In this document: positions 4,428-31,950 of the stretch, piece by piece
How the letters are laid out: each line of letters opens with the position of its first letter
How positions within the stretch are numbered: the first letter of the stretch is position 1
Made by a program: the position numbers and the translations under genes
Sequence record: NZ_CP081909.1
DNA length: 32,968 bases
Origin: a plasmid
Reading direction: 5' to 3' (one strand)
Notes under the pieces: generated by a model
Databases searched by the model: none
What the model was told of the DNA's origin: nothing
The model's input: only the letters and a program-made list of their open reading frames with translations

Positions 4428-4685
4428 TTATAGCAGGGAACTGTTTTTATCCAAGTAGTCAGATATAGCCTCTTGCAATACCGATTTTAGCGAATTGCCT
4501 TTGCGGATCGCGATCAGCTTTAAGTTCTGGTGATAGGTTTCGTCCATGACAAAATTACAATGCACGGTTTTCACCTTCTTCGGCTTTTGAGCCTCTTTTT
4601 GCCCGGCCGTGGATTGGATCAGGCTGTCTAAGCCCCCGGTCAGCCCGGCCGACATACTGTTTTTTAAATCGTTCTTCTTTGCCAT
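4428..4685 (-). CDS. Small DNA-binding partner of ParA (putative centromere-binding or ParB-like adaptor)
   Basis: 85-aa basic protein immediately downstream of parA (5-nt gap) on the same strand, the classic two-gene partition operon arrangement. Confidence 0.4.
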   Translation of the reverse strand: MAKKNDLKNSMSAGLTGGLDSLIQSTAGQKEAQKPKKVKTVHCNFVMDETYHQNLKLIAIRKGNSLKSVLQEAISDYLDKNSSLL

Positions 4686-5492: not shown

Positions 5493-5530
5493 AAATACTA
5501 ATATACTAAAATACTAAAAGTAGTATTTTT
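5493..5530. promoter_or_regulatory. TAGTA/TACTA motif cluster (AATACTAATATACTAAAATACTAAAAGTAGTATTTTT) in the divergent parA / 5673 promoter region
   Basis: Member of a motif family recurring at about 9627-9664, 10296-10340, 12683-12730, 13262-13300, 13383-13400, 14215-14262 and 15527-15640. Confidence 0.45.
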
Positions 5531-6059: not shown

Positions 6060-6776
6060 ATGAAATATAAAAAAATAGTTAGGTTATATTCAAATTCACG
6101 TGTGGCTAAGTATTATCGGGCTACAAGTGGAGATAAAAATAAGGCGGTAATGCTTTATTTTGCCAATATGAAGATAGCGCAGGCTTTTCATCCGCTACTT
6201 TCTTCCTTTGAAGTTATCTTGCGGAATCAGTTACATTATGCCCTGGCGCATCATTTTTCGGACGGGAACTGGATCATAAATCAGAAAAACGGGTTTATGG
6301 TAGCTTCTTCCTTGACGCACACGAATAAGCGTACAAAGAAGCAAGTAACCAATAGATACTTGCTGACGGAAGTGCAAAAAGCTGAAAAGAAAATTTCCGA
6401 TCGTGGCGCGAGGATTACAGCAGGGAGGGTTATAGCGGAACAGACCTTGGGCTTCTGGAACAGTTTTTATGAGGTTCATCATTATATACTATTATCCGGT
6501 GTCCCTTGTACCATATTTAAGAAACTGCCTTCCGGATATGGACGGAAACAAGTCAATGATGTTATCACACAAGTTCGTGAATTGAGGAATCGCATTAATC
6601 ATAATGAGCCTATTTGCTTTGTAAATAAAAAATGTGATTTTTCTTATGTAAGGGAAATGTATAGGTTAATTAGCAAATTTCTTTCTTGGATAGATCCGGA
6701 AATAATGCCGTCCTTGAAAGAGGTGGATAAGGTGATTAAAACAATAGATAAGGAAGAGCAAAAGCAAAAGGGATGA
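6060..6776 (+). CDS. Abi_2-family (AbiD/AbiF-like) abortive-infection-type protein
   Basis: Signature-like motifs EVILRNQLHYALAHHF and VRELRNRINHNEPI, matching the conserved RN..AH. elements of the Abi_2 family. About 240 aa and AT-rich, as is typical. Confidence 0.6.
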   Translation: MKYKKIVRLYSNSRVAKYYRATSGDKNKAVMLYFANMKIAQAFHPLLSSFEVILRNQLHYALAHHFSDGNWIINQKNGFMVASSLTHTNKRTKKQVTNRYLLTEVQKAEKKISDRGARITAGRVIAEQTLGFWNSFYEVHHYILLSGVPCTIFKKLPSGYGRKQVNDVITQVRELRNRINHNEPICFVNKKCDFSYVREMYRLISKFLSWIDPEIMPSLKEVDKVIKTIDKEEQKQKG

Positions 6777-7411
6777 ATGTGGTTATCTATTCACGTGTAA
6801 GCTCGCAGTCGGCCAGGCAATCGACCGAACGGCAGGTTGTCGATCTGGAGAGGTTCGCAGCCGGACGGGGGTACGAGGTGACGGCGGTCTTTGAGGAAAA
6901 GATAAGCGGACGAAAGGCCAATATCGAACGCCCGGTTTTAAGCCGTTGCCTGGAATACTGCACAGATCCGCAGAACCGGGTGGATATGTTGTTGTTGACC
7001 GAGATCTCACGCCTGGGGCGTTCCACCCTGGAGATCCTAAAGGCACTCGATACGCTGCACACGCATAAAATATGCGTGTATATCCAAAACCTGAACCTGG
7101 AAACATTACGGTCGGACAAGACGGTAAACCCCTTGTCCTCTCTGATTACTACCCTATTGGGGGAACTGGCCGCAATCGAACGCCAGGGGATCATCGACCG
7201 CCTTAATAGCGGACGGGAGTTGTACATCCAGAAAGGGGGCAGGCTGGGACGGAAGCCGGGAAGCCGGAAAACGGCCGAGCAGAGGAAAGAGGAATACCGG
7301 GAGGCGATCGCCTTGTTAAAGAAAGGCTACTCGATCCGGAACGTGGCGAAGCTCACGGGAAAAGCCGTTTCGACGATACAACAAGTAAAAAAAGACTTCA
7401 TTAATAGCTGA
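6773..7411 (+). CDS. Small serine recombinase (resolvase/invertase family) with a C-terminal HTH
   Basis: N-terminal VVIYSRVSSQSARQ catalytic-serine motif. C-terminal HTH GYSIRNVAKLTGKAVSTI. Start ATG overlaps the Abi stop (ATGA). Confidence 0.8.
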   Translation: MNVVIYSRVSSQSARQSTERQVVDLERFAAGRGYEVTAVFEEKISGRKANIERPVLSRCLEYCTDPQNRVDMLLLTEISRLGRSTLEILKALDTLHTHKICVYIQNLNLETLRSDKTVNPLSSLITTLLGELAAIERQGIIDRLNSGRELYIQKGGRLGRKPGSRKTAEQRKEEYREAIALLKKGYSIRNVAKLTGKAVSTIQQVKKDFINS

Positions 7412-9071: not shown

Positions 9072-9470
9072 ATGAAATCAACGGAATATATCGAATGGGA
9101 TAAACTGGAGCAGATCCCGTTCTGCCTTTGCCGGATCGCGGAGGATGAAGAAAACCAGGAAATAGATGTTTATTATCTGGATAAACGGGTTTGCCATGAT
9201 TACGATCATGTGGGGCATTATTTTCGTACTGCGATAATCATGTTTAGAAGGATCAGGAACATAACGGCCGATTGGGTGAACCTCAAAAACCTTTGGTTGC
9301 TAAGGGACTGTATCAGGGAGAATTTTAATCATGGCCTGGAGGTGGACGATCTGATCTTCGGGGAAACATTCGACGGTGAGGATCCGGAAACTATAAAGCC
9401 GCTAACCAAAGAACGGCTGTTCAAGATTAAAAAGGTGATTCAGGAAAAAGATCCATACGCTACCGTATAG
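9072..9470 (+). CDS. Hypothetical acidic protein, possible Fic partner
   Basis: 132-aa ORF starting 22 nt after the fic stop on the same strand. No recognisable motif. Confidence 0.35.
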   Translation: MKSTEYIEWDKLEQIPFCLCRIAEDEENQEIDVYYLDKRVCHDYDHVGHYFRTAIIMFRRIRNITADWVNLKNLWLLRDCIRENFNHGLEVDDLIFGETFDGEDPETIKPLTKERLFKIKKVIQEKDPYATV

Positions 9471-9665
9471 GGGGGAGTATATAAAAACAAAACCCTGGAG
9501 TTTGTCTTGCGACAGGGACAACAGGGGATTACTACGCAAATATAGGGAGTATATCTCGTTTATACAAGGATTTTATGGCTTTTCTGGATTGATTTTAAAA
9601 AGAATAGAGGCTTGTTCCCTGGAATGTAGTATTTACTACTTTTAGTATTTTAGTATATTAGTACG

Positions 9666-9767
9666 CTTTTCTTTTGGAGGATTTGGGCGTTCCCGTAAAC
9701 GGTCGGGCTTTCCGCCTCCAAGTCCTCGCCTAAAGGCTGTGGGCTTTCCACTGCAATCCCTAACGCA
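9666..9767 (+). repeat. Non-coding element C, copy 1 (5' part of the 1-kb structured region)
   Basis: About 90% identical to 30313-30407. Core: CTTTTCTTTTGG..GGGCGTTCCCGT...CGGTCGGGCTTT.CGC.TCCAAGTCCTCGCCTAAAGGCTGTGGGCTTT.C.CTGCAATCCCTAACGCA. Confidence 0.5.
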
Positions 9768-10295
9768 TGAATACCCCCACCCACCCGATTAAGGTAGGCT
9801 ATTTCCGGATAGAGCCGTTCGGTGAAGCCAGCCGGATAAAAGCCGCCTGACTTTTCACTGATCGGCACAATCCGGGTACTCCGGTAGCCGATTGTCGAAC
9901 CCGGTTTTAAACCCCCTTTCAGGGGAGAGAGGTATTTTAGTTTTTCCGGTGTGGCCGCCTTGCGTTTACCTTGACCGGGGTTTTTGTCTGCAAAGGTCAA
10001 ACGGCTTTTTCCATATCCCAAGTTGAGCCGCAAGCGGCTTTTAGAAAAAATCTCCAGCCTGGCTAAAGCCAGGTAGTATTTTTCCTAAAAAACTTGTGCT
10101 ATGGAAAAAACCGTTTGGGGTGTTCTCATACAAAAACCCCTCGGAACTCAAGGTAAACGCAAGGCGACCACACCGACAGCCCCGAAAAACCAAAATGAGG
10201 TTGTCTTGATACAAAAACATCGGAATCTTAGGCATCCGCAAGGTTTTTTGGGGGGGAGAGGGTGCGAGGTGGGGAGTTTACTATCGGAAAAAATC

Positions 10296-10340
10296 AGGTA
10301 GTAAATACTAAATTTAGTATATACTAAAATACTACTTTTT
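10296..10340. promoter_or_regulatory. TAGTA/TACTA motif cluster upstream of ardC (includes the perfect palindrome TAGTATATACTA)
   Basis: GTAGTAAATACTAAATTTAGTATATACTAAAATACTAC, about 150 nt upstream of the ardC start. Confidence 0.45.
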
Positions 10341-10487
10341 CATATAATTATCTGATAAATAGTTAGTTAAATGTTGTTTAAATACTTGCATATCTCAAAT
10401 AAAAGTGCTATATTAGAGGTATAGAAAAAGAGATAACAACCTTTAGAACTGGCTCACCCACCAGGATAAAGAACGGGGGACGTAGTT

Positions 10488-11504
10488 ATGAAAACTGATT
10501 ATTTCGACAAGGCAGCGCAACAGTTTGCAAATTTGATGATCGAGAAGATCCAGCAGGTAGAGGACAATTGGCAAAAGCCCTGGATCACCATTGCGGCGAA
10601 TACACGCAATTTCTTTCCGCAGAACCTCACAGGACGCAGGTACGCCGGAGGTAACGCCTTTTTACTTCTTTTCCTTTGCGAGAAATTCCAGTACCAGACA
10701 CCCGTATTTATGACATTCAACCAGGCGAAAGAGGCCGGGATCTCCGTGCTGAAAGGATCGAAATCGTTTCCGGTCTATTACTTCCTTTTCTACGTGTACC
10801 ACAAGGAAACACGCAAGAAAATAACCTTTGAGGAATACAAGGCGTTAAGCCGGGAGCAGCAACAGGAATACAACGTTATACCGACCTATAAATATTACTC
10901 GGTCTTTAACCTGGATCAGACCAATTTTTCGGACGTGAGGCCGGAAGAATGGGAAGCGTTAAGGGAGAAGTTCAGAGGGGGACAGGCAGAGCAGCCCGAC
11001 GGGACAACCGGAGAGGCGCACCCCGAAATAGACGCCATGCTGGAGGCGAAAAGCTGGTTTTGCCCGATACGGGAGCAGCAAGGCGACAGGGCTTTCTATT
11101 CTCCTTTAGCCGATTATATCGTAGTGCCGCTTCGCTCGCAGTTCGTCGATATGCAGAGCTTTTACGAAACGCTTCTGCATGAAATGGGACATTCCACGGG
11201 ACACCCCACCCGATTGAACCGGGATCTTGCGCACCCGTTCGGATCAGAGGAATACGGCAAGGAGGAATTAACGGCCGAGTTCGCCGCAGCCCTGGCAGGA
11301 ATGTTTTTCGGGATAGCCGAACATATACGCACTGAAAACGCAGCTTATCTGAAAAGCTGGATAAAGGCGATCCGGGAAGAACCCAAGTTCATTTTAAACG
11401 TACTGGCCGACGCTATGAAAATTGTCAAGATGATAGCCGGGAAACTGAATATCTCCGTAGAAAGCGAGGAAACGGCAGCAGATGAAGCGGAACAGGTGGC
11501 ATGA
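10488..11504 (+). CDS. ardC: ArdC-like antirestriction protein (N-terminal ssDNA-binding DUF1738-like domain plus C-terminal zincin metalloprotease)
   Basis: N-terminal RRYAGGNAFLL (Y.G.N...L motif). C-terminal HEMGHSTGH (HExxH). About 340 aa. Follows the large structured non-coding region. Confidence 0.7.
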   Translation: MKTDYFDKAAQQFANLMIEKIQQVEDNWQKPWITIAANTRNFFPQNLTGRRYAGGNAFLLLFLCEKFQYQTPVFMTFNQAKEAGISVLKGSKSFPVYYFLFYVYHKETRKKITFEEYKALSREQQQEYNVIPTYKYYSVFNLDQTNFSDVRPEEWEALREKFRGGQAEQPDGTTGEAHPEIDAMLEAKSWFCPIREQQGDRAFYSPLADYIVVPLRSQFVDMQSFYETLLHEMGHSTGHPTRLNRDLAHPFGSEEYGKEELTAEFAAALAGMFFGIAEHIRTENAAYLKSWIKAIREEPKFILNVLADAMKIVKMIAGKLNISVESEETAADEAEQVA

Positions 11505-12680: not shown

Positions 12681-12752
12681 TACTACATCTACTAAAAATA
12701 GTAGATACTACTTTTAGTATTTTAGTTCGTACGCTCAATCCTGGGAGAAAAA

Positions 12753-13145: not shown

Positions 13146-13275
13146 GGGCGTATATGGTTTATTGGGAACGTGGATATTTTTAATATTTCCGTTCCGGGAT
13201 TCTTCGGCCGAAAGATAAAAAAATCTCTCGAATAATCTTTGGGATAGATGCGCTTTTTTTAGTAAATACTAAAAA

Positions 13276-13300
13276 TAGTATTTTTGTAATGCGCATTACA
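13276..13300. promoter_or_regulatory. Composite operator 1: TAGTATTTTTG plus the 16-bp palindrome TGTAATGCGCATTACA
   Basis: Exact palindrome. Same composite at 13392-13416 and 14258-14282. Lies in the divergent regulator/sprT intergenic region. Confidence 0.5.
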
Positions 13301-13391
13301 GTAGTGTATTTTGTAAACGTAACGTGTACTTATTCAAGTATTTTAGTAAAATGGGTATCTTTTATATCCGGTTATACTAATATTAGTATTT

Positions 13392-13416
13392 TAGTATTTT
13401 TGTAATGTACATTACA
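13392..13416. promoter_or_regulatory. Composite operator 2: TAGTATTTTTG plus TGTAATGTACATTACA
   Basis: See operator 1. Lies 45 nt upstream of the sprT-like start. Confidence 0.5.
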
Positions 13417-14147: not shown

Positions 14148-14165
14148 GAAACAGTGCAAAGGTCA

Positions 14166-14195
14166 GAAGCCCCCAGTAAAAACCCCGCCGGAGGC
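14166..14195 (+). repeat. Core of element E (D motif) downstream of the sprT-like gene
   Basis: GAAGCCCCCAGTAAAAACCCCGCCGGAGGCA, 19 nt after the stop codon. Confidence 0.35.
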
Positions 14196-14257
14196 AGATT
14201 TCAAGCATACTCGTTTTACTAAAATACTAAGATTAGTATAGACTTATCTTAGTCTTT

Positions 14258-14282
14258 TAGTATTATTGTAATGTGCATTACA
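14258..14282. promoter_or_regulatory. Composite operator 3: TAGTATTATTG plus TGTAATGTGCATTACA
   Basis: See operator 1. Lies between the sprT-like stop and the bidirectional terminator. A half-site TGTAATGTGCATT recurs at about 15955-15967. Confidence 0.45.
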
Positions 14283-15463: not shown

Positions 15464-15544
15464 AGGCTTTTTTTTTGAGTTCGGGACAAAGTTAAAGAAA
15501 TAAAAGATACCGCCAAAAAATACCAAGTATTTTTTATTGTAACC

Positions 15545-15630
15545 TTTAGTAAAATGGGTATTTATTGGAGGGGGTAATTTTAGTAAAATAAGTATTTTCC
15601 CCCTTCGGATTTTAGTAAAATGAGTATTTT
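15545..15630. promoter_or_regulatory. Three direct iterons TTTAGTAAAAT(G/A)(G/A)GTATTT(T) with exact 33-bp phasing (candidate oriV and rep autoregulation site)
   Basis: Copies at about 15545, 15578 and 15611, immediately upstream of rep. A fourth copy, TTTAGTAAAATGGGTAT, lies at about 13342-13358 upstream of the sprT-like gene. Confidence 0.55.
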
Positions 15631-16074
15631 AGGTTGTGTTTTTTCACTTATAACGATTTGTATTTCAGTTAATTATAAATGAAAAAACGCTTTCTTACAA
15701 AGAACCTCTACAAAGACTATTCTCACAAAGAAGGAAAATTTTAGGGAATCACAGGCTTCAAAAACGGCTGGAAAATGTGCATTTTGAAAACGGAAAATGA
15801 GAAGCGGAGAAAAAATGAGCGAAGCGTTTCTTTAGTGCGATTTTTCCGCGCGTTAAAATGTGTGAAATTTTGTTTTTGTGTTGTAAAATCTAAGGTGATC
15901 GGAACGATTGCCGCCGTTTTACAAATGTACACTTTTTTGGGGGGCGGTGTACATTTGTAATGTGCATTTTGGGGGCTGGGTGTCTGATGTATTGGAGCGA
16001 AGCCGTGCGGAGCGTTCCAGGAGCGACGAGCGAAGCAAGGAGAGAGAGAACGACGGTTTACCAAAGTGAGCAAG

Positions 16075-16200
16075 CAGTCATTGGACTTAGTCCAATGCTG
16101 ATTTTCTAAATCACTGATATATAACTGTTTACTTGTTTATATGTATGCGAATTGCATACATATTGCATACATTATTTTGATAATTCATTGAATTATAGTA
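16075..16200. promoter_or_regulatory. Candidate oriT (inverted repeats upstream of mobA)
   Basis: Perfect inverted repeat CATTGGACTTAGTCCAATG (about 16079-16097). ATGTATGCGAATTGCATACAT (about 16141-16161) followed by a repeated ATTGCATACAT. An 11-bp inverted repeat ACAAATGTACA/TGTACATTTGT lies at about 15921-15958. Confidence 0.4.
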
Positions 16201-16221
16201 TATTGTAGCCGATATTTATGT

Positions 16222-16842
16222 ATGCAAACCCCTATACGTGAAATTATGGCAACAACAAGTAAAGATACGTCTATCCGTATAAAGGAGAGTACAAGGTTTA
16301 GGCTTGATATGCTGAAAGGAAACAAATCGCACGATGCGTTCGTGGCCGAAATGTTACTCTATTTTGAAACAACGGGGATCACCCCGCAGTCGAATGTAAT
16401 GCCGCCGAACATTGCGGCCAAAGAGCAGGCAAGCCGGGTGATCGAAGTTGTCCGGGGCATTGAGAAATCCACTAACGTAAGGCTGAAAAACATCGAACAA
16501 CTCCTTTTGTCGCTTGTCGGGGAAGTGAAAACGCCGGGGGACAATCCGGACGAATATATGCACATCTCACAGGTACAGGAACTTTTGGAGCGTTCCAAGC
16601 AACTGGAACAGGAAGCCAGGGAAAACCGGGAGAAGGCCGGGAAACTGCAAACGGATCTCGAAATAGCCCGGCAGGAGAAAGGAACTCCGGCCGTCGGATG
16701 CAATACGCACAAGATCCTGGAGATCGTGGAGCGTATCGACGAGGTGAAGAAGATACCGACATTCAACGATACGGTTTATGAGATAGACCGTAATACGCTG
16801 GATATGTGGGTGAAAAGGTTAAAGGACGAACTAAAGAGATAA
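16222..16842 (+). CDS. mobA: MobA-like relaxosome accessory protein
   Basis: First gene downstream of the oriT-like inverted repeats, immediately upstream of the relaxase (5-nt gap). Coiled-coil, charged C-terminal half. Confidence 0.5.
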   Translation: MQTPIREIMATTSKDTSIRIKESTRFRLDMLKGNKSHDAFVAEMLLYFETTGITPQSNVMPPNIAAKEQASRVIEVVRGIEKSTNVRLKNIEQLLLSLVGEVKTPGDNPDEYMHISQVQELLERSKQLEQEARENREKAGKLQTDLEIARQEKGTPAVGCNTHKILEIVERIDEVKKIPTFNDTVYEIDRNTLDMWVKRLKDELKR

Positions 16843-16846
16843 GCCT

Positions 16847-19102
16847 ATGTTTGCCAAAGTACACCCGGCCGAGGACGTGAAAAGCGGAAATACGGGAAGC
16901 TGTCACGACCTGGTGCGTTATCTGGAAAAGGAAACGGGGGAGGGACAGCGTTTTTTCTCCCATACGGAGCAGGATATTTCACCCGAACGGGTAATTATGG
17001 ATATAGACGGGAACAAAAAGGCGTTAGGGGCTAACGACGCTAAATTCTTCATGCTTTCGCTCAATCCGTCGCAGTCGGAACAAATGCACCTTATCGGCCG
17101 GAAAGTGGACGATTTTAAGGAACTTACACCACAGGAGAAAAAAGAGGTTTTCCAAAAGCTGGAGGCGTTCACCCGTTCGGCTATGGATGAATACGCCTTG
17201 AACTTCGGACGGGACAATATTAGGGGAGGCCAGGATCTCATGTATTACGCACGTGTGGAAACGGAACGATCCTATCATCCGGAAGATGAAGAGGTGAAAC
17301 AGGGGATCGCCAGGATCGGAGAGCCTAAACCCGGTCTGAACTTACACGTTCACGTAATCGTTTCACGCAAGAGCCTGGACGGGAAAGTGAAACTTTCTCC
17401 GGGGGCTAAATCGGCCGGGAACACCTGGGAACTGGAGGGCAGGGGGACGGTGAAACGGGGTTTTTCACATGAGGGCTGGAAAGTCAGGGTACAGGAATGT
17501 TTTAACCGGAAATTCGATTACCAGGCCAAAGAGGGGGAAACTTATGTACGTCCGCAGGTATCGGCCGAGATCGGGAAGATCACGAACCCGGAGCTTAAAA
17601 GGATATTGCAGGACGAGCAGTTTACGGCGGCAAACCAGATCGTCGCAGCCATGAGGGAACAAGGTTACACGCACCAGGTAAGGAAGGGGGTGCATTCCTT
17701 TTCACGGGAGGGTGAAGTGTTCCAGGTTGAACACAGGCTCTTGAAAGCGTTCGAACAACCTCTGTCTGACGAGCAGCTAAAAAGCATAACGGAACGTTTC
17801 GACTTGACAAAGTACGAGGCGAACCCGGCCGGGTACAGGGAGAACGGTTTGCAGGTAAAGGATATAAGTTTCTCGACATATGTAAAAGATGAAGCACAGA
17901 AGGGGGAAAAGGCCTTGAAAGAGGTCGCTTATAAAGTGGTTTATGATGAACAAAACCATACGACGGTATCGTTCGCCACCGTCCGGCAGTTCGCATACGA
18001 GCATCAAATAAACCTGGTGAAAAGCGAACCGACGGCCGAAGCCGTCTTGAAGAAGATCAAGAACCCGGAGCTTAAAAACCTGTTGGAGAACTACCGTTTT
18101 ACGTCCGCTAACCAGATTGTCGTAGCCATGAAAGAACAAGGCTACACGCATAAGGTACGGAAAGGGGTACATTCCTTTTCACGGGAGGGTGAACGGGTGA
18201 GCATACGGCACAAGGATCTGAAAAAATTCGCCGATCCGAAACTGGAGAGCCGCCACATGGAGGGCATTATCGAACGGTTTAACCTGTACAAGTACAAGCA
18301 GGAGGGCGTGGCCTACCGGGAAAACGGCCTGGAAGCCAAGAATATTTCTTTCCTGACATACCAGAAAGTGCCGATCGAGCCGGAAGAGGATAAAAGCGTG
18401 ACCGGAAAGCCGGAAACAAAGGAGGAAGCGCAGCAGCCACAGCAGGAAACGCCGGGGAGCGAGGCACATCCGGAAGAAACGGAAAACGAAGCGGAAACGC
18501 CCATGCCTGAACCCGATCCGGTGAAATACAGGAAAGAGCTTAAAGAGGTGTCTTATGATGTACTGTTTGATAGGGAAACGAAAACCTATGTGCCGATTTC
18601 GGCGATCCGGAAATACGCATACGAGAATGAGATCAATCTGATAGACCGATACAAGCATGGGTACGCAGTCAGGAACGAGGATCTTAGGGAGTGCCTGGCA
18701 AATCCCGAATACCGGACGGTAAGGCAGATAAACAAGGCCATGAGGGAGAGGGGATATACGATCGAAAGGGACGAGGCCGGAAACTATACCTACATCAAGG
18801 GGGAAAGTTCTTTCTTTATGGAACGCCGGGATTTGCTTGCCTTTACCGGGTACGCCAAAGATACCGGAGGCCGGGAAAGGGAAAGGGGAACGCACCGAAG
18901 CGCAGACAAGACGGTCGGGTTTATCGGTGGTAAGGCCAAACAAAAGCTGATAAACGAGATCCTGGGGGATAGCTTCCGGACGGAAAGGATGCTTGTAGGC
19001 AACGTGAAAAAGGCCGTCAGCCTTATACAGAACCCGGCTAATATAAAAATGATGCTGATAAAACAGATCGGCAGTTTTCTAAACCCGTTTAAAGAGTTAT
19101 GA
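16847..19102 (+). CDS. mobB: MobB-type relaxase (MOB_P-like) with a triplicated C-terminal repeat domain
   Basis: N-terminal relaxase motifs (SGNTGSCHDLVRYLEKE, histidine triad NLHVHVIVSR). 751 aa. Internal repeats of about 160 aa: NPELK..ANQIV.AM.EQGYTH.VRKGVHSFSREGE occurs twice, plus a third degenerate copy. Confidence 0.75.
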   Translation: MFAKVHPAEDVKSGNTGSCHDLVRYLEKETGEGQRFFSHTEQDISPERVIMDIDGNKKALGANDAKFFMLSLNPSQSEQMHLIGRKVDDFKELTPQEKKEVFQKLEAFTRSAMDEYALNFGRDNIRGGQDLMYYARVETERSYHPEDEEVKQGIARIGEPKPGLNLHVHVIVSRKSLDGKVKLSPGAKSAGNTWELEGRGTVKRGFSHEGWKVRVQECFNRKFDYQAKEGETYVRPQVSAEIGKITNPELKRILQDEQFTAANQIVAAMREQGYTHQVRKGVHSFSREGEVFQVEHRLLKAFEQPLSDEQLKSITERFDLTKYEANPAGYRENGLQVKDISFSTYVKDEAQKGEKALKEVAYKVVYDEQNHTTVSFATVRQFAYEHQINLVKSEPTAEAVLKKIKNPELKNLLENYRFTSANQIVVAMKEQGYTHKVRKGVHSFSREGERVSIRHKDLKKFADPKLESRHMEGIIERFNLYKYKQEGVAYRENGLEAKNISFLTYQKVPIEPEEDKSVTGKPETKEEAQQPQQETPGSEAHPEETENEAETPMPEPDPVKYRKELKEVSYDVLFDRETKTYVPISAIRKYAYENEINLIDRYKHGYAVRNEDLRECLANPEYRTVRQINKAMRERGYTIERDEAGNYTYIKGESSFFMERRDLLAFTGYAKDTGGRERERGTHRSADKTVGFIGGKAKQKLINEILGDSFRTERMLVGNVKKAVSLIQNPANIKMMLIKQIGSFLNPFKEL

Positions 19103-30312: not shown

Positions 30313-30407
30313 TCTTTTTCTTTTGGGCGTTCCCGTGGGACGGTCGGGCTTTACGCTCCAAGTCCTCGCCTAAAGGCTGTGGGCTTTACTCTGCAATCCC
30401 TAACGCA
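30313..30407 (+). repeat. Non-coding element C, copy 2 (immediately 3' of the tra operon)
   Basis: Same as above. Followed within 45 nt by element A and then element E. Confidence 0.5.
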
Positions 30408-30450
30408 ATTTTGGGTGTCCGCTTTGTCATTCTGTTACCGGGATTTGTCT

Positions 30451-30554
30451 GCATGGTGGGAGAACCGCACCGATCAGCCAGGCACGCAATATCATTTTGT
30501 CATTGCCAGCAGGCTGTTTTTATGGTGTAACGCTCCGATATTGCTTTCTTTTTG
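30451..30554 (+). repeat. Non-coding element A, right copy
   Basis: GCATGGTGGGAGAACCG.ACCGATCAGCC...TGTTTTTATGGTGTAACGC.CCGATAT.GCTTTCTTTTT, shared with the left copy. Confidence 0.5.
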
Positions 30555-30557
30555 ATA

Positions 30558-30606
30558 GATATGCAAATGCAAGAAGCCCCCCGGCGAAAACCCCGCCGGA
30601 GGCAAT
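30558..30606 (+). repeat. Element E (ATATGCAAATGCArGAAGCCCCC.GCGAAAACCCCGCCGGrGGCAAT), copy 1
   Basis: Near-identical copy at 31904-31950. The core GAAGCCCCC..AAAACCCCGCCGGAGGCA also occurs at 14166-14195 just past the sprT-like stop. CCGGCG/CGCCGG can form a short hairpin. Confidence 0.45.
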
Positions 30607-30615
30607 TATAGAAAG

Positions 30616-30656
30616 TCTGTGTATCATTTCCACAAAATGTGGAAATGATACACAGA
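30616..30656. promoter_or_regulatory. Perfect 19-bp-arm palindrome TCTGTGTATCATTTCCACA-aaa-TGTGGAAATGATACACAGA
   Basis: Read directly from the sequence. 41 nt with no mismatches. Lies between element E and the promoter region of the 30795 gene. Confidence 0.6.
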
Positions 30657-30794
30657 TAACAGTTCTTCAATAAATATATGTGTTTTTTGTATGCTTTTGA
30701 TTATCAGGTATATATGACTTGCTTATTTGTTTGGCACAATGTTTGTTCTTTGTCTTTCAGAAACCATATGTTAAATATTTAAATAGATTGGATT

Positions 30795-31100
30795 ATGAAA
30801 AAGGTATTATTTGCAGTAGCACTTGTTATGGGATTGGGTAGTTCAGTGGCATTCGCCGGCAACATGGTATCGGATGTTGAGATTGTGGTAATGGTGAACG
30901 ATTATAAGCCAATCGAGGTAAAGGATCTGCCGCAGGCGGTTCAGGACACGATCAAGAAGGATTTCGCAGACCTGACAATCAAGGAAGCCGCAGTTGAGGA
31001 AAGCGAGGAAGGCACAAAGACCTACAAGGTGACATTTACCGATGCAGAAGGCACGGACAGCGAAGTGTTCTTCAACGAGAAGGGCGAAGTCCTGAAATAA
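30795..31100 (+). CDS. Small secreted protein (PepSY-like fold suspected)
   Basis: Signal peptide. 101 aa. Ends at a strong bidirectional terminator. Confidence 0.4.
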   Translation: MKKVLFAVALVMGLGSSVAFAGNMVSDVEIVVMVNDYKPIEVKDLPQAVQDTIKKDFADLTIKEAAVEESEEGTKTYKVTFTDAEGTDSEVFFNEKGEVLK

Positions 31101-31131
31101 AGCAAATGAACAGCAAAAAGAGAATTCAATT

Positions 31132-31184
31132 AAACTGTGTCAGCAAAATTAATATTTTATTGCTTTGCTGACACAGTTTGTTTT
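31132..31184. terminator. Bidirectional terminator between convergent genes
   Basis: 16-bp perfect stem AAACTGTGTCAGCAAA / TTTGCTGACACAGTTT with an AT loop, followed by a T-run. Lies between 30795-31100 (+) and 31183-31626 (-). Confidence 0.65.
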
Positions 31185-31626
31185 ACAGCCCCTCCGGTTC
31201 CGGTGACTTGTAAGGCTTGAAAGCAACCCGAACTTCCTTATGCTCATCGATGACGAAAGTCTGCTCCGGCTCCACAGAACGAATAATGACGCCATTGACT
31301 TTCCAATACATGATTGTCCATGATTTGGAATGGGTAGCACGAAAATGCACCGTTGTGCCTTTCGCTATTTCAGCCGGAGAGATCAATTCTCCTATCTTTT
31401 CCGCAGCCGTATTTTCCAACTCCGGTTTAGCCGAAAGCTGACCTTCACCCTGATCCACACCAAATGCCAGCACTACTTTTTCCACTGCGGGAGGAAGAGG
31501 AGGATCTTCATCATTGTCACAAGAAACCGCAAATAGCGTAAGCCCATACAACAAAACAACGACAAAAGAGAGATAACCGATCTGTCTCATTAAGCCGATT
31601 TCTTTTTTTTCCATAGCAGTTTTCAT
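31183..31626 (-). CDS. Lipoprotein of unknown function
   Basis: Lipobox LFAVSCDNDED. Driven by the B promoter module with a near-consensus Bacteroides -7 element. Convergent with the previous gene. Confidence 0.45.
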   Translation of the reverse strand: MKTAMEKKEIGLMRQIGYLSFVVVLLYGLTLFAVSCDNDEDPPLPPAVEKVVLAFGVDQGEGQLSAKPELENTAAEKIGELISPAEIAKGTTVHFRATHSKSWTIMYWKVNGVIIRSVEPEQTFVIDEHKEVRVAFKPYKSPEPEGL

Positions 31627-31635
31627 AAGCTTATT

Positions 31636-31690
31636 TTTTGTTTACGACCGCATAAAGATAACAATTTGTTGGCTAAAAGGGTTTATTAAA
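31636..31690 (-). promoter_or_regulatory. Promoter module B, right copy, driving the 31183-31626 lipoprotein gene
   Basis: Same approximately 50-nt block. -7 element TATCTTTA lies 27 nt upstream of the ATG. Confidence 0.45.
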
Positions 31691-31903
31691 TATAGTGTTT
31701 ATCACTTAATGATTTAAGGTTAATATCCTGTAGGTTGCAGGGAGAACAAACGGGAACAGCCGTTCCCGCCCCTTTCGGATTGTATGCCAGCACCCCTAAA
31801 AAATGCCTTGTCAAAGACAAGTAGTAACACGCCTGTGTTACGTTTTCGACTTTTCAGCCGTCCGACCGCCACCCCGTCCGATTTGACTTGCCTTTGAGGT
31901 TAT

Positions 31904-31950
31904 ATATGCAAATGCAGGAAGCCCCCAGCGAAAACCCCGCCGGGGGCAAT
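31904..31950 (+). repeat. Element E, copy 2
   Basis: See copy 1. Confidence 0.45.

Follow-up and report, generated by a model that had tools for sequence, protein, structure and literature searches.

Why does a conjugative plasmid keep a kilobase without a protein directly upstream of ardC, an anti-defence gene? We addressed this question in the DNA of plasmid record NZ_CP081909.1 (hereafter the window, meaning the whole stretch that was analysed, which is 32,968 nucleotides (nt) long and is numbered from its first letter). Positions 9471-10487 (1017 bases) form the largest gap in the window that is poor in open reading frames (ORFs), and are flanked by an ORF of 132 amino acids (aa) and by ardC. 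A preliminary description, made from the sequence alone, had treated this gap as one 1-kilobase (kb) element, possibly a single-stranded DNA (ssDNA) promoter of the Frpo type or a large regulatory RNA. We find it very probable that the gap is a mosaic intergenic control region, extending from the gene of a small RNA (sRNA), BTnc273, to the ardC promoter. From left to right it comprises BTnc273 (transcribed leftward), a TAGTA cluster, a hairpin array of ~600 nt, a G-rich tail, an inverted TAGTA cluster and the ardC promoter (transcribed rightward). The array (~9680-10295) is made of three separable units, namely an 85-nt module, a C-rich box (C-box) with a hairpin termed H2, and a 263-nt quasi-palindrome. 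That the locus combines known parts with a portable hairpin array is secure, and from sequence comparison we place high confidence in the view that the array units belong to families shuffled among Bacteroidales plasmids. The features of the gap, with the second copy of the module, are as follows.

9441-9532, minus strand: BTnc273, antisense to the 3' end of the 132-aa ORF; mapped from p5482 coordinates
9544-9537, minus strand: -7 box of BTnc273, TATATTTG, a perfect Bacteroides -7 box
9623-9664: first TAGTA cluster, 8-base-pair (bp) repeats with units TAGTATTT / TAGTATAT
9650-10033, minus strand: spurious ORF (127 aa), the RefSeq hypothetical protein BT_RS24285
9682-9767: 85-nt module, copy 1, with a GCGTT...AACGC closing helix, a variable P1 hairpin and the invariant boxes CGGGCTTTCCG, AAGTCCTCGC, GCTGTGGGCTTT and CCCTAACG
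9774-9796: C-box CCCCCACCCACCC followed by GAT and TAAGGTA, a conserved leader
9797-9889: H2, closed by GGCTAT/GGTAGCC; Y-shaped in relatives
9912-9925: small hairpin CCCCCTTTCAGGGG, conserved in the family except for a length polymorphism of the A/C run at 9911
9934-10196: 263-nt quasi-palindrome, with arms 9934-10024 and 10091-10196 and an apical part (10025-10090) that holds two small hairpins
10197-10295: G-rich tail, a diverged direct repeat of part of the BTnc273 region, ending in GGGGAGTTTA
10296-10340: second TAGTA cluster, inverted relative to the first
10385-10487, plus strand: ardC promoter and 67-nt leader, with -33 box CTTG at 10385-10388, -7 box TATATTAG at 10409-10416 and transcription start site (TSS) at 10421
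10488-11504, plus strand: ardC, with the ArdC N-terminal ssDNA-binding domain (PF08401, 8e-33) and a zincin metallopeptidase domain (PF18818, MPTase-PolyVal, 6e-34)
30322-30407: 85-nt module, copy 2, in the same orientation as copy 1 and directly 3' of a terminator-like hairpin after the tra operon

The gap is 99.2-99.5% identical to Bacteroides thetaiotaomicron p5482 (NC_004703 30833-31849; the offset from p5482 to the window is 21362) and matches ~17 sister plasmids from Bacteroides, Parabacteroides and Phocaeicola in the same range of identity. This identifies the window as all or nearly all of a conjugative plasmid of the p5482 family. That the gap holds no credible protein is confirmed by this comparison, in which no ORF is conserved. 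The minus-strand ORF at 9650-10033 has no Pfam match. Its annotated length is 351 nt in some plasmids and 219 nt in others, and some do not annotate it, although identity among these plasmids is 98.7% or higher; indels of 1, 5 and 78 nt disrupt its frame. We rejected it as a real gene because Pfam is empty and the frame is broken in near-identical plasmids; the Pfam scan left out two further ORFs of at least 60 aa over the palindrome (10041-10241, minus strand, and 10101-10301, plus strand). The hairpin density is equally real. Folding of both strands gave z-scores of -12.2 (plus) and -13.9 (minus) for 9620-10345, with 0 of 20 dinucleotide shuffles equalling the observed fold, and the four stem-loops that had been quoted were all found (CCGGGTACTCCGG at 9872-9884, CCCCCTTTCAGGGG, GAGCCGCAAGCGGCT at 10027-10041 and CCTGGCTAAAGCCAGG at 10059-10074). 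At the gathering threshold Rfam gave no match in the whole window or in five related loci, and at E <= 10 it gave only miRNA-type hairpin noise and sub-threshold Flavo-1. The array units are described by no Rfam family and in none of the literature searched, which also contained nothing on ArdC-linked elements of Bacteroides plasmids.

Both ends of the gap belong to ordinary transcription units. BTnc273 is a published 91-nt sRNA located at p5482 30803-30894 (minus strand), and its TSS was placed at 30894 by differential RNA sequencing (Ryan et al. 2020, PMC7366714). Positions 9471-9620 are 100% identical to p5482, so the coordinates and sequence of the locus match the annotated sRNA, and other Bacteroidales plasmids preserve 9477-9547 at 88-91%. 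This sRNA gene and its promoter make up the left 60-70 nt of the gap; however, transcription runs away from the hairpin core, none of which is explained by the sRNA. At the other end, the same list contains a primary TSS at p5482 31783 (= window 10421; PMC7366714), and this start together with the TATATTAG and CTTG boxes indicates an ordinary ardC promoter with a 67-nt leader. Among the plasmid starts covered here from that study, which represent rich-medium growth phases only, none falls within window 9533-10420 (p5482 30895-31782). With a published sRNA gene at its left and an ordinary promoter and leader at its right, the interval is not one element, and the description of a single 1-kb unit has to be given up. 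Each TAGTA cluster of the gap sits 45-80 nt upstream of one of these outward-facing promoters. It should also be noted that the ardC leader contains a hairpin at 10445-10470, which reads CTGGCTCACCCACCAG in the p5482 family and CTGGTTTGGCTGCCAG in pBF9343 (contig L009, 1105-1128); the stem is conserved, the loop differs, and ATAAAGAAC follows in both. Judging from this pattern, the hairpin may be a translational control element of ardC.

The first unit of the array, the 85-nt module, is portable. A duplication had been proposed for the 5' 100 nt of the interval, and a second copy does exist, but the duplicated part is 9682-9767/30322-30407 (92% identity over 87 nt). The module was found in more than 50 other Bacteroidales plasmids (PLSDB), beside recombinase or LuxR-type genes, and in 17 IMG/VR contigs. 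Across 20 distinct copies the long invariant boxes are held in common and the first hairpin varies, and the cassette of module and terminator seen at copy 2 recurs in pBUN2-type plasmids. In the phage-like IMG/VR contig L040 (4161-4185) the module lies between the genes for a prohead protease and the major capsid protein, co-directional with them, showing that it is not restricted to plasmids. Compensatory changes are scarce (1 of 19 pairs with both sides changed). We rejected, as the main reading, a role of the module as the res site of the nearby serine recombinase, given two direct copies 20.6 kb apart and the copy in the phage contig. Beside copy 2, the region 30440-30800 includes a 19-bp perfect hairpin (30616-30656; L011 2215-2255). 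This region is inverted relative to the module in plasmid CP103219, which suggests a rearrangement with its breakpoint at the module.

The described motif that comes nearest in Rfam is Flavo-1 (RF01705; Weinberg et al. 2010, PMC2864571). Both module copies match it over its full length (1-76) on the minus strand and share its twice-repeated GAUUG.AG.GGAAA boxes, with scores of 23.8 bits at 9697-9771 and 24.5 bits at 30338-30411 that do not reach the gathering score of 42. The module differs in that these scores are far under the gathering score and in that its own G-U pattern prefers the opposite strand. Flavo-1 itself has no known function. In Flavobacterium its matches lie sense or antisense to transcripts, with many outside them (PMC9723704), and this placement suggests a repeat nature there as well.

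The second unit combines a constant leader with an interchangeable hairpin. The general form of the C-box is CCCACCCACCC, three or four bases, and TAAGGTA. A metagenome scan revealed that the hairpin after this box differs from one plasmid family to another, with at least five sequence classes unrelated to each other; the box stands before H2, before both pBF9343 hairpins and before hairpins of the 'CATC' class. H2 itself is a genuinely conserved fold, as seen from its covariation and the controls. An alignment of the p5482 type, the CP103219 type and L099 has 64 pairs, with 97.3% of cells paired and both sides changed in 13 pairs; none of 500 shuffles reached the observed value, and slid controls gave at most 2. 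A covariance model built on H2 retrieved a fourth lineage, in which the closing stem and second arm are rewritten and the junction boxes retained. Covariation, proposed earlier as a check on the entire element, is thus present in H2 but not convincing in the module, and the long hairpin has diverged too little to judge. In the window the second arm of H2 has shrunk to the CCGGGTACTCCGG loop. In P. dorei-type variants (L003 at ~2000-2080, L013, L015 and L050-L059) a 78-nt hairpin with a perfect stem is inserted exactly in this loop (window 9872-9884), restoring the second Y arm as in CP103219; the window carries the short allele. A hammerhead-like CTGATGAG within the inserted hairpin was rejected because the GAAA core element was absent on reading. 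We also discarded L145 as a diverged relative without the right arm, since its assembly is noisy, contains homopolymer errors and garbles ardC; in L050 the right arm may be missing because the assembly breaks there.

The third unit, the nested hairpin at 9934-10196, is the dominant feature of the gap and was absent from the preliminary description. Its arms are 96% complementary at 9947-9974/10148-10175 and 89% at 9998-10024/10091-10117, and it forms ~109 pairs, with DNA-parameter energies of -91.5 kcal/mol on the minus strand and -81.6 on the plus strand. The minus strand was preferred in 12 of 12 variants, by ~9 kcal/mol with DNA parameters and ~15 with RNA parameters. With DNA parameters the energy difference (ddG) of -10 compares with a null of -0.7 +/- 4.5 from random substitutions in a perfect palindrome (p ~0.02-0.04). 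The long hairpin was not found outside the p5482 family in PLSDB, in ArdC-anchored genome contigs or in C-box-anchored metagenome loci; the sole IMG/VR match to an 18-mer of the arm (L029) was rejected as a chance match.

No other segment of the locus varies as much as the quasi-palindrome. Four sister plasmids match the window at 100% over ardC (1017 nt), the promoter, both TAGTA clusters and the sRNA region, yet their hairpin has 4 substitutions and 2-3 indels. At 10004/10005 versus 10110/10111 the majority state is two mismatches; p5482 regains both pairs by changes in the left arm, and the window regains one by a change in the right arm. A complete plasmid of B. xylanisolvens (CP072217) is missing the central 150 nt, leaving a shorter hairpin whose right arm copies the left. 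This pattern would fit a DNA palindrome that extrudes and undergoes template switching, with assembly error in a palindrome as a caveat.

The units have a consistent orientation. They are co-directional with the relaxase gene in 4 of 4 independent backbones (p5482, the pBF9343-like L052, the L104 class and the CP103219 class), and as the neighbouring genes in CP103219 run the opposite way, unit orientation follows the relaxase and not the neighbours. Although its relaxase is of the MOBP type and its Rep is not that of p5482, plasmid pBF9343 keeps the p5482 gene order, with a recombinase, the module plus C-box and two 65-nt hairpins, ardC, another C-box with hairpin, small genes, Rep, mobC and the relaxase, all on one strand. 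Several unit copies are placed after intrinsic-terminator-like hairpins and before promoters, sites that may be poorly transcribed. In gut metagenome contigs L073 and L116, the pBF9343-type upstream region (module, C-box, two hairpins, promoter and ardC leader) stands before another ORF, which appears to fit a portable regulatory cassette with its cargo swapped. A general ardC-linked element was rejected, as the association is limited to plasmid families.

The direction of transfer can be deduced, conditionally, from the relaxase operon. A 14-bp perfect inverted repeat at 15919-15960 (TTACAAATGTACAC / GTGTACATTTGTAA) lies upstream of the BtgA/BtgB-type operon, and ATGTATGCAA palindromes at 16139-16227 lie upstream of the btgA-like gene; both are candidates for the region of the origin of transfer (oriT). 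The relaxase is BtgB-like, and the oriT of pBFTM10 lies upstream of btgA. The oriV iterons and a probable oriT are located at 15.5-16.2 kb, upstream of the mob operon. A relaxase operon usually enters the recipient last (PMC11541004). If this rule holds, the minus strand would be the transferred strand and the template for ardC and for the SprT-like gene, both of which point towards the 15919-15960 repeat. This would put ardC at 4.5-5.5 kb within the leading region, with the array entering directly behind it.

Given this geometry, our tentative reading, which we consider possible rather than probable, is that the units are fold-back signals in the ssDNA of the transferred strand, used for priming or early transcription. 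The minus strand would enter the recipient 5' to 3' from ~16 kb towards lower coordinates, with ardC ahead of the array. Once inside, the array would fold into a duplex-like structure on which host enzymes could start to make primer RNA, a transcript or both, and extension from the array would run back across ardC towards oriT. The leading 6 kb could in this way be made duplex early, allowing the normal ardC promoter to fire, or ardC could be transcribed directly. We place this reading first because of the geometry shared by two unrelated backbones, the relaxase-linked orientation, the placement, the lack of a listed core TSS and the minus-strand lean of the palindrome. A broader version is more doubtful still. 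It would have Bacteroidales conjugative plasmids carry strand-specific ssDNA signals, each consisting of a CCCACCCACCC-N3-TAAGGTA leader and a hairpin (H2 or the 263-nt palindrome), always oriented with the relaxase and read by the Bacteroides transcription or priming machinery, as the first Frpo/ssi analogue outside the promoter grammar of the Proteobacteria type.

A number of results weigh against a role in the transferred strand. The reading is weakened by the phage context of the module, by its plus-strand G-U pattern and by the restricted, unstable palindrome: no transferred strand exists between phage prohead protease and capsid genes, the module has 31 G-U versus 2 A-C cells, which favours the plus strand, and the palindrome is lineage-restricted, hypervariable and partly deleted in one complete plasmid. 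The strand tests of the three units (G-U/A-C counts, both-strand alifold energies and the mutation null) disagree. H2 is ambiguous, since its consensus energy is -67 (plus) or -71 (minus) and both strands have conserved wobble positions, and the strand asymmetry of the palindrome is not significant with RNA parameters (p ~0.1-0.2). The loops do not decide between RNA and DNA, as a plus-strand C(UNCG)G loop is a minus-strand DNA mini-hairpin of the C(GNA)G type. oriT, nick and transfer direction are all deduced from the relaxase-last rule, p5482 itself did not transfer in the one published test (PMC1976400), and the 4 of 4 orientation is a weak statistic (p ~0.06). In CP103219, H2 would enter late, ~26 kb behind the leading end. 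Distant ArdC homologues in genome contigs (42-52% identity) are located in tight operons with no such upstream region. Finally, ardC has a double-strand promoter, whose TSS at 10421 lies 225 nt past the big hairpin.

The search for promoter boxes was also unfavourable. The one candidate, CTTG at 10022-10019, N21 and GACCTTTG at 9998-9991, is found on the non-template arm of the folded minus strand, in the mismatch-rich part of the stem, and would direct a start at ~10131-10136 towards ardC. However, the same scan returned 19 one-mismatch -7 boxes per 1.1 kb. The candidate is thus not beyond chance and by itself is no evidence. In the pBF9343 hairpins no promoter boxes were seen on reading the arm sequences. 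The original suggestion of an Frpo-like promoter therefore stands in part: the DNA is protein-free and hairpin-dense, the H2 fold is conserved and the deduced geometry would fit, but the promoter boxes are no better than chance.

The comparison with Frpo/ssi of F and ColIb-P9 (Masai & Arai 1997; Couturier et al. 2023, PMC9849209) is nonetheless close in some respects. These are likewise non-coding, long imperfect stem-loops. The array would occupy the leading region, upstream of an anti-defence gene templated by the presumed transferred strand, on which the 263-nt hairpin is also the more stable. At ~260 nt the hairpin falls within the 50-350 bp search window of Samuel et al. 2024 (PMC11541004), a paper in whose main text Bacteroid* occurs 0 times. 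The array differs in having no promoter boxes above chance, in the mapped double-strand promoter of ardC, and in the host sigma factor and promoter grammar (Bacteroides -33/-7). The long hairpin is moreover limited to one plasmid family and partly dispensable. A second parallel is provided by the single-strand origins (sso) of rolling-circle plasmids, which are orientation-specific, non-coding, folded ssDNA of 150-300 nt where RNA polymerase makes a primer. Here, unlike in those plasmids, the replicon is a Rep_3 iteron (theta-type) replicon, and ssDNA should therefore arise mainly from conjugation.

The TAGTA clusters at both sides of the core are present, as had been described, and we find them to be mutually inverted. 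They are not specific to the gap, since five other intergenic regions carry such clusters. The repeat is an 8-bp TAGTAT(T/A)T, and its clusters lie in the maintenance/leading half of the plasmid. One cluster (5496-5526) is directly upstream of parA, and an 85-aa protein encoded after ParA (4428-4685, minus strand) has weak ParG/ribbon-helix-helix (RHH) matches. Three 22-nt iterons, TTTTAGTAAAATNAGTATTT, at 15543-15630 adjoin the Rep_3 gene and have the TAGTA core in common with the clusters. From this distribution, the repeats are probably binding sites of a global regulator or centromere protein, of Rep, or of both.

We weighed four other explanations for the array. It is unlikely, though only somewhat less probable than the fold-back reading, that the units work as RNA, forming plus-strand 3'-end or intercistronic structures in a Rho-entry and pause/stability cassette that insulates ardC from read-through of the Fic operon and protects upstream mRNAs. 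The module does lie mostly just 3' of a co-directional gene (p5482 copies 1 and 2, the pBF9343 recombinase stop codon, pBUN2 and phage contigs L040 and L046), the array is situated between two transcription units, and the plus strand bears the module's G-U pairs and the C(UNCG)G-type loops. The C-box is C-rich and G-poor, as are rut sites. However, the units in CP103219 are antisense to both neighbouring genes, and little RNA should arrive at the several copies that follow an intrinsic-terminator-like hairpin. The hairpins are without a following U-tract, 600 nt is too much for a terminator, and the loops could equally be DNA mini-hairpin loops on the opposite strand. We consider it unlikely to the same degree that the units are selfish or neutral DNA, that is, palindromic repeats like REP/BIME, BOX or MITE elements spread by recombination or by an unlinked enzyme, with the 263-nt hairpin as a recent inverted duplication and no benefit to the plasmid from any of them. 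REP/BIME of enterobacteria and BOX of pneumococci are short modular intergenic hairpin units of variable order and number, often located just after genes, and the array units resemble them as hairpin modules at unrelated intergenic loci in variable combinations. Their distribution is mosaic and their order shuffled between plasmids. Module and C-box are ~78% identical between p5482 and pBF9343, with the adjacent ArdC proteins at ~52%. The palindrome, restricted and variable as it is, tolerates the 150-nt deletion and the neighbouring 78-nt hairpin insertion, the tail and arms resemble duplications of neighbouring sequence, and H2 is preceded by a GTAG-like motif, as REPs are. On the other hand, each replicon examined, whether a plasmid or a phage-like contig, has one to three copies of the units, as opposed to hundreds per chromosome. 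No RAYT- or IS200-type gene or other transposase turned up among the scanned window ORFs, and the orientation relative to the relaxase looks constant. In addition, the unpaired boxes of H2 and the module are invariant across lineages, suggesting recognition by something, and the same upstream cassette is retained before different cargo genes in L073 and L116.

A DNA structure for replication, copy control or partition (a secondary origin, an incompatibility/handcuffing locus or a centromere-associated structure) is improbable. The TAGTA core shared by the iterons and the clusters that bracket the array, the cluster upstream of parA, the ParG/RHH matches and a stretch of 28% GC after the second cluster would all suit it. 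However, the five other TAGTA-bearing intergenic regions have no such core, pBF9343 and CP103219 carry hairpin units without TAGTA clusters, and nothing ties the hairpins themselves to Rep or Par. Least probable of all, and very improbable in our estimate, is one large structured non-coding RNA of ~500-700 nt across the core. A global fold of very low energy pairs the C-rich 9774-9790 with the G-rich 10250-10275, and H2 covaries. Yet no Rfam family matched above threshold and no core TSS is listed, so the alternative of a novel large regulatory RNA, also raised in the preliminary description, is not supported. Furthermore, the units occur apart and in other orders elsewhere, whole hairpins are gained or lost between plasmids that are at least 96% identical over the region, and the big hairpin, a nearly perfect Watson-Crick duplex, is hypervariable and confined to a single plasmid family. 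Our ranking, which is not settled, thus puts ssDNA signals first, RNA punctuation and selfish DNA equal next, then replication or partition, and a large non-coding RNA last.

The remainder of the window, with a gene map drawn from Pfam scans and the RefSeq table, is organised around the gap as follows.

Start of the map: fimbrial genes
Minus strand: ParA, then the small downstream protein
Plus strand, left of the gap: a block of an Abi_2-like gene, a resolvase, a Fic gene and the 132-aa ORF (ending at 9470)
Right of ardC: two hypothetical genes, a minus-strand gene and the SprT-like gene
Minus strand: Rep_3 initiator
Plus strand: BfmA/BtgA-type mobilisation gene, DUF5712 (BtgB-type) relaxase, coupling protein and tra genes
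5496-5526, 12691-12726, 13260-13404, 14197-14261 and 15543-15630, intergenic: other TAGTA clusters

Several further repeats were seen in this map. Positions 9634-9663, within the first TAGTA cluster of the gap, are a perfect 30-nt inverted copy of 5496-5525. The two copies enclose 4.1 kb with the Abi_2-like gene, the serine recombinase (6773-7411), the Fic gene and the 132-aa ORF; p5482 has a RhuM gene at the place of the window's Abi_2, and the segment could be invertible or exchangeable cargo. Three copies of TAGTATTTTTGTAATGYRCATTACA (13276-13300, 13392-13416 and 14258-14282), with a TGTAATG.GCATTACA palindrome, are located beside TAGTA repeats, and the similar TTTGTAATGTGCATTTTGG is found at 15953-15971; this is a second operator-like motif. 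A G+C-rich hairpin repeat (..GAAGCCCCC.G..AAAACCCCGCCGG.GGCA) is present three times at gene ends (14155-14196, 30563-30604 and 31907-31948), and these copies look like shared terminators. Within the DUF5712/BtgB-like relaxase gene there is a 142-nt direct repeat, 83% identical (17575-17716 and 18052-18193), which indicates an internal protein repeat. The direct repeats 456-564/30445-30553 (86%) and 297-342/31640-31685 (96%) connect the regions at both ends of the window, and BTnc270 and BTnc271 of p5482 map near them.

Bacteroides plasmids and conjugative transposons spread resistance and fitness genes in the human gut, and their establishment in a new cell is almost unstudied. To our knowledge, only enterobacterial plasmids and a few others have single-strand promoters and priming signals that have been described. 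The published BTnc273 and the ordinary ardC promoter within the gap temper any claim of a novel 1-kb element. Whatever the function of the array, the RefSeq 'hypothetical protein' of the gap is spurious, and common gut plasmids carry conserved motifs that lack annotation, namely H2, the C-box rule and the 85-nt module. If the role in the transferred strand is true, the units would show how a Bacteroides plasmid turns on ardC ahead of host restriction, and they would provide an easy marker of leading regions in this phylum.

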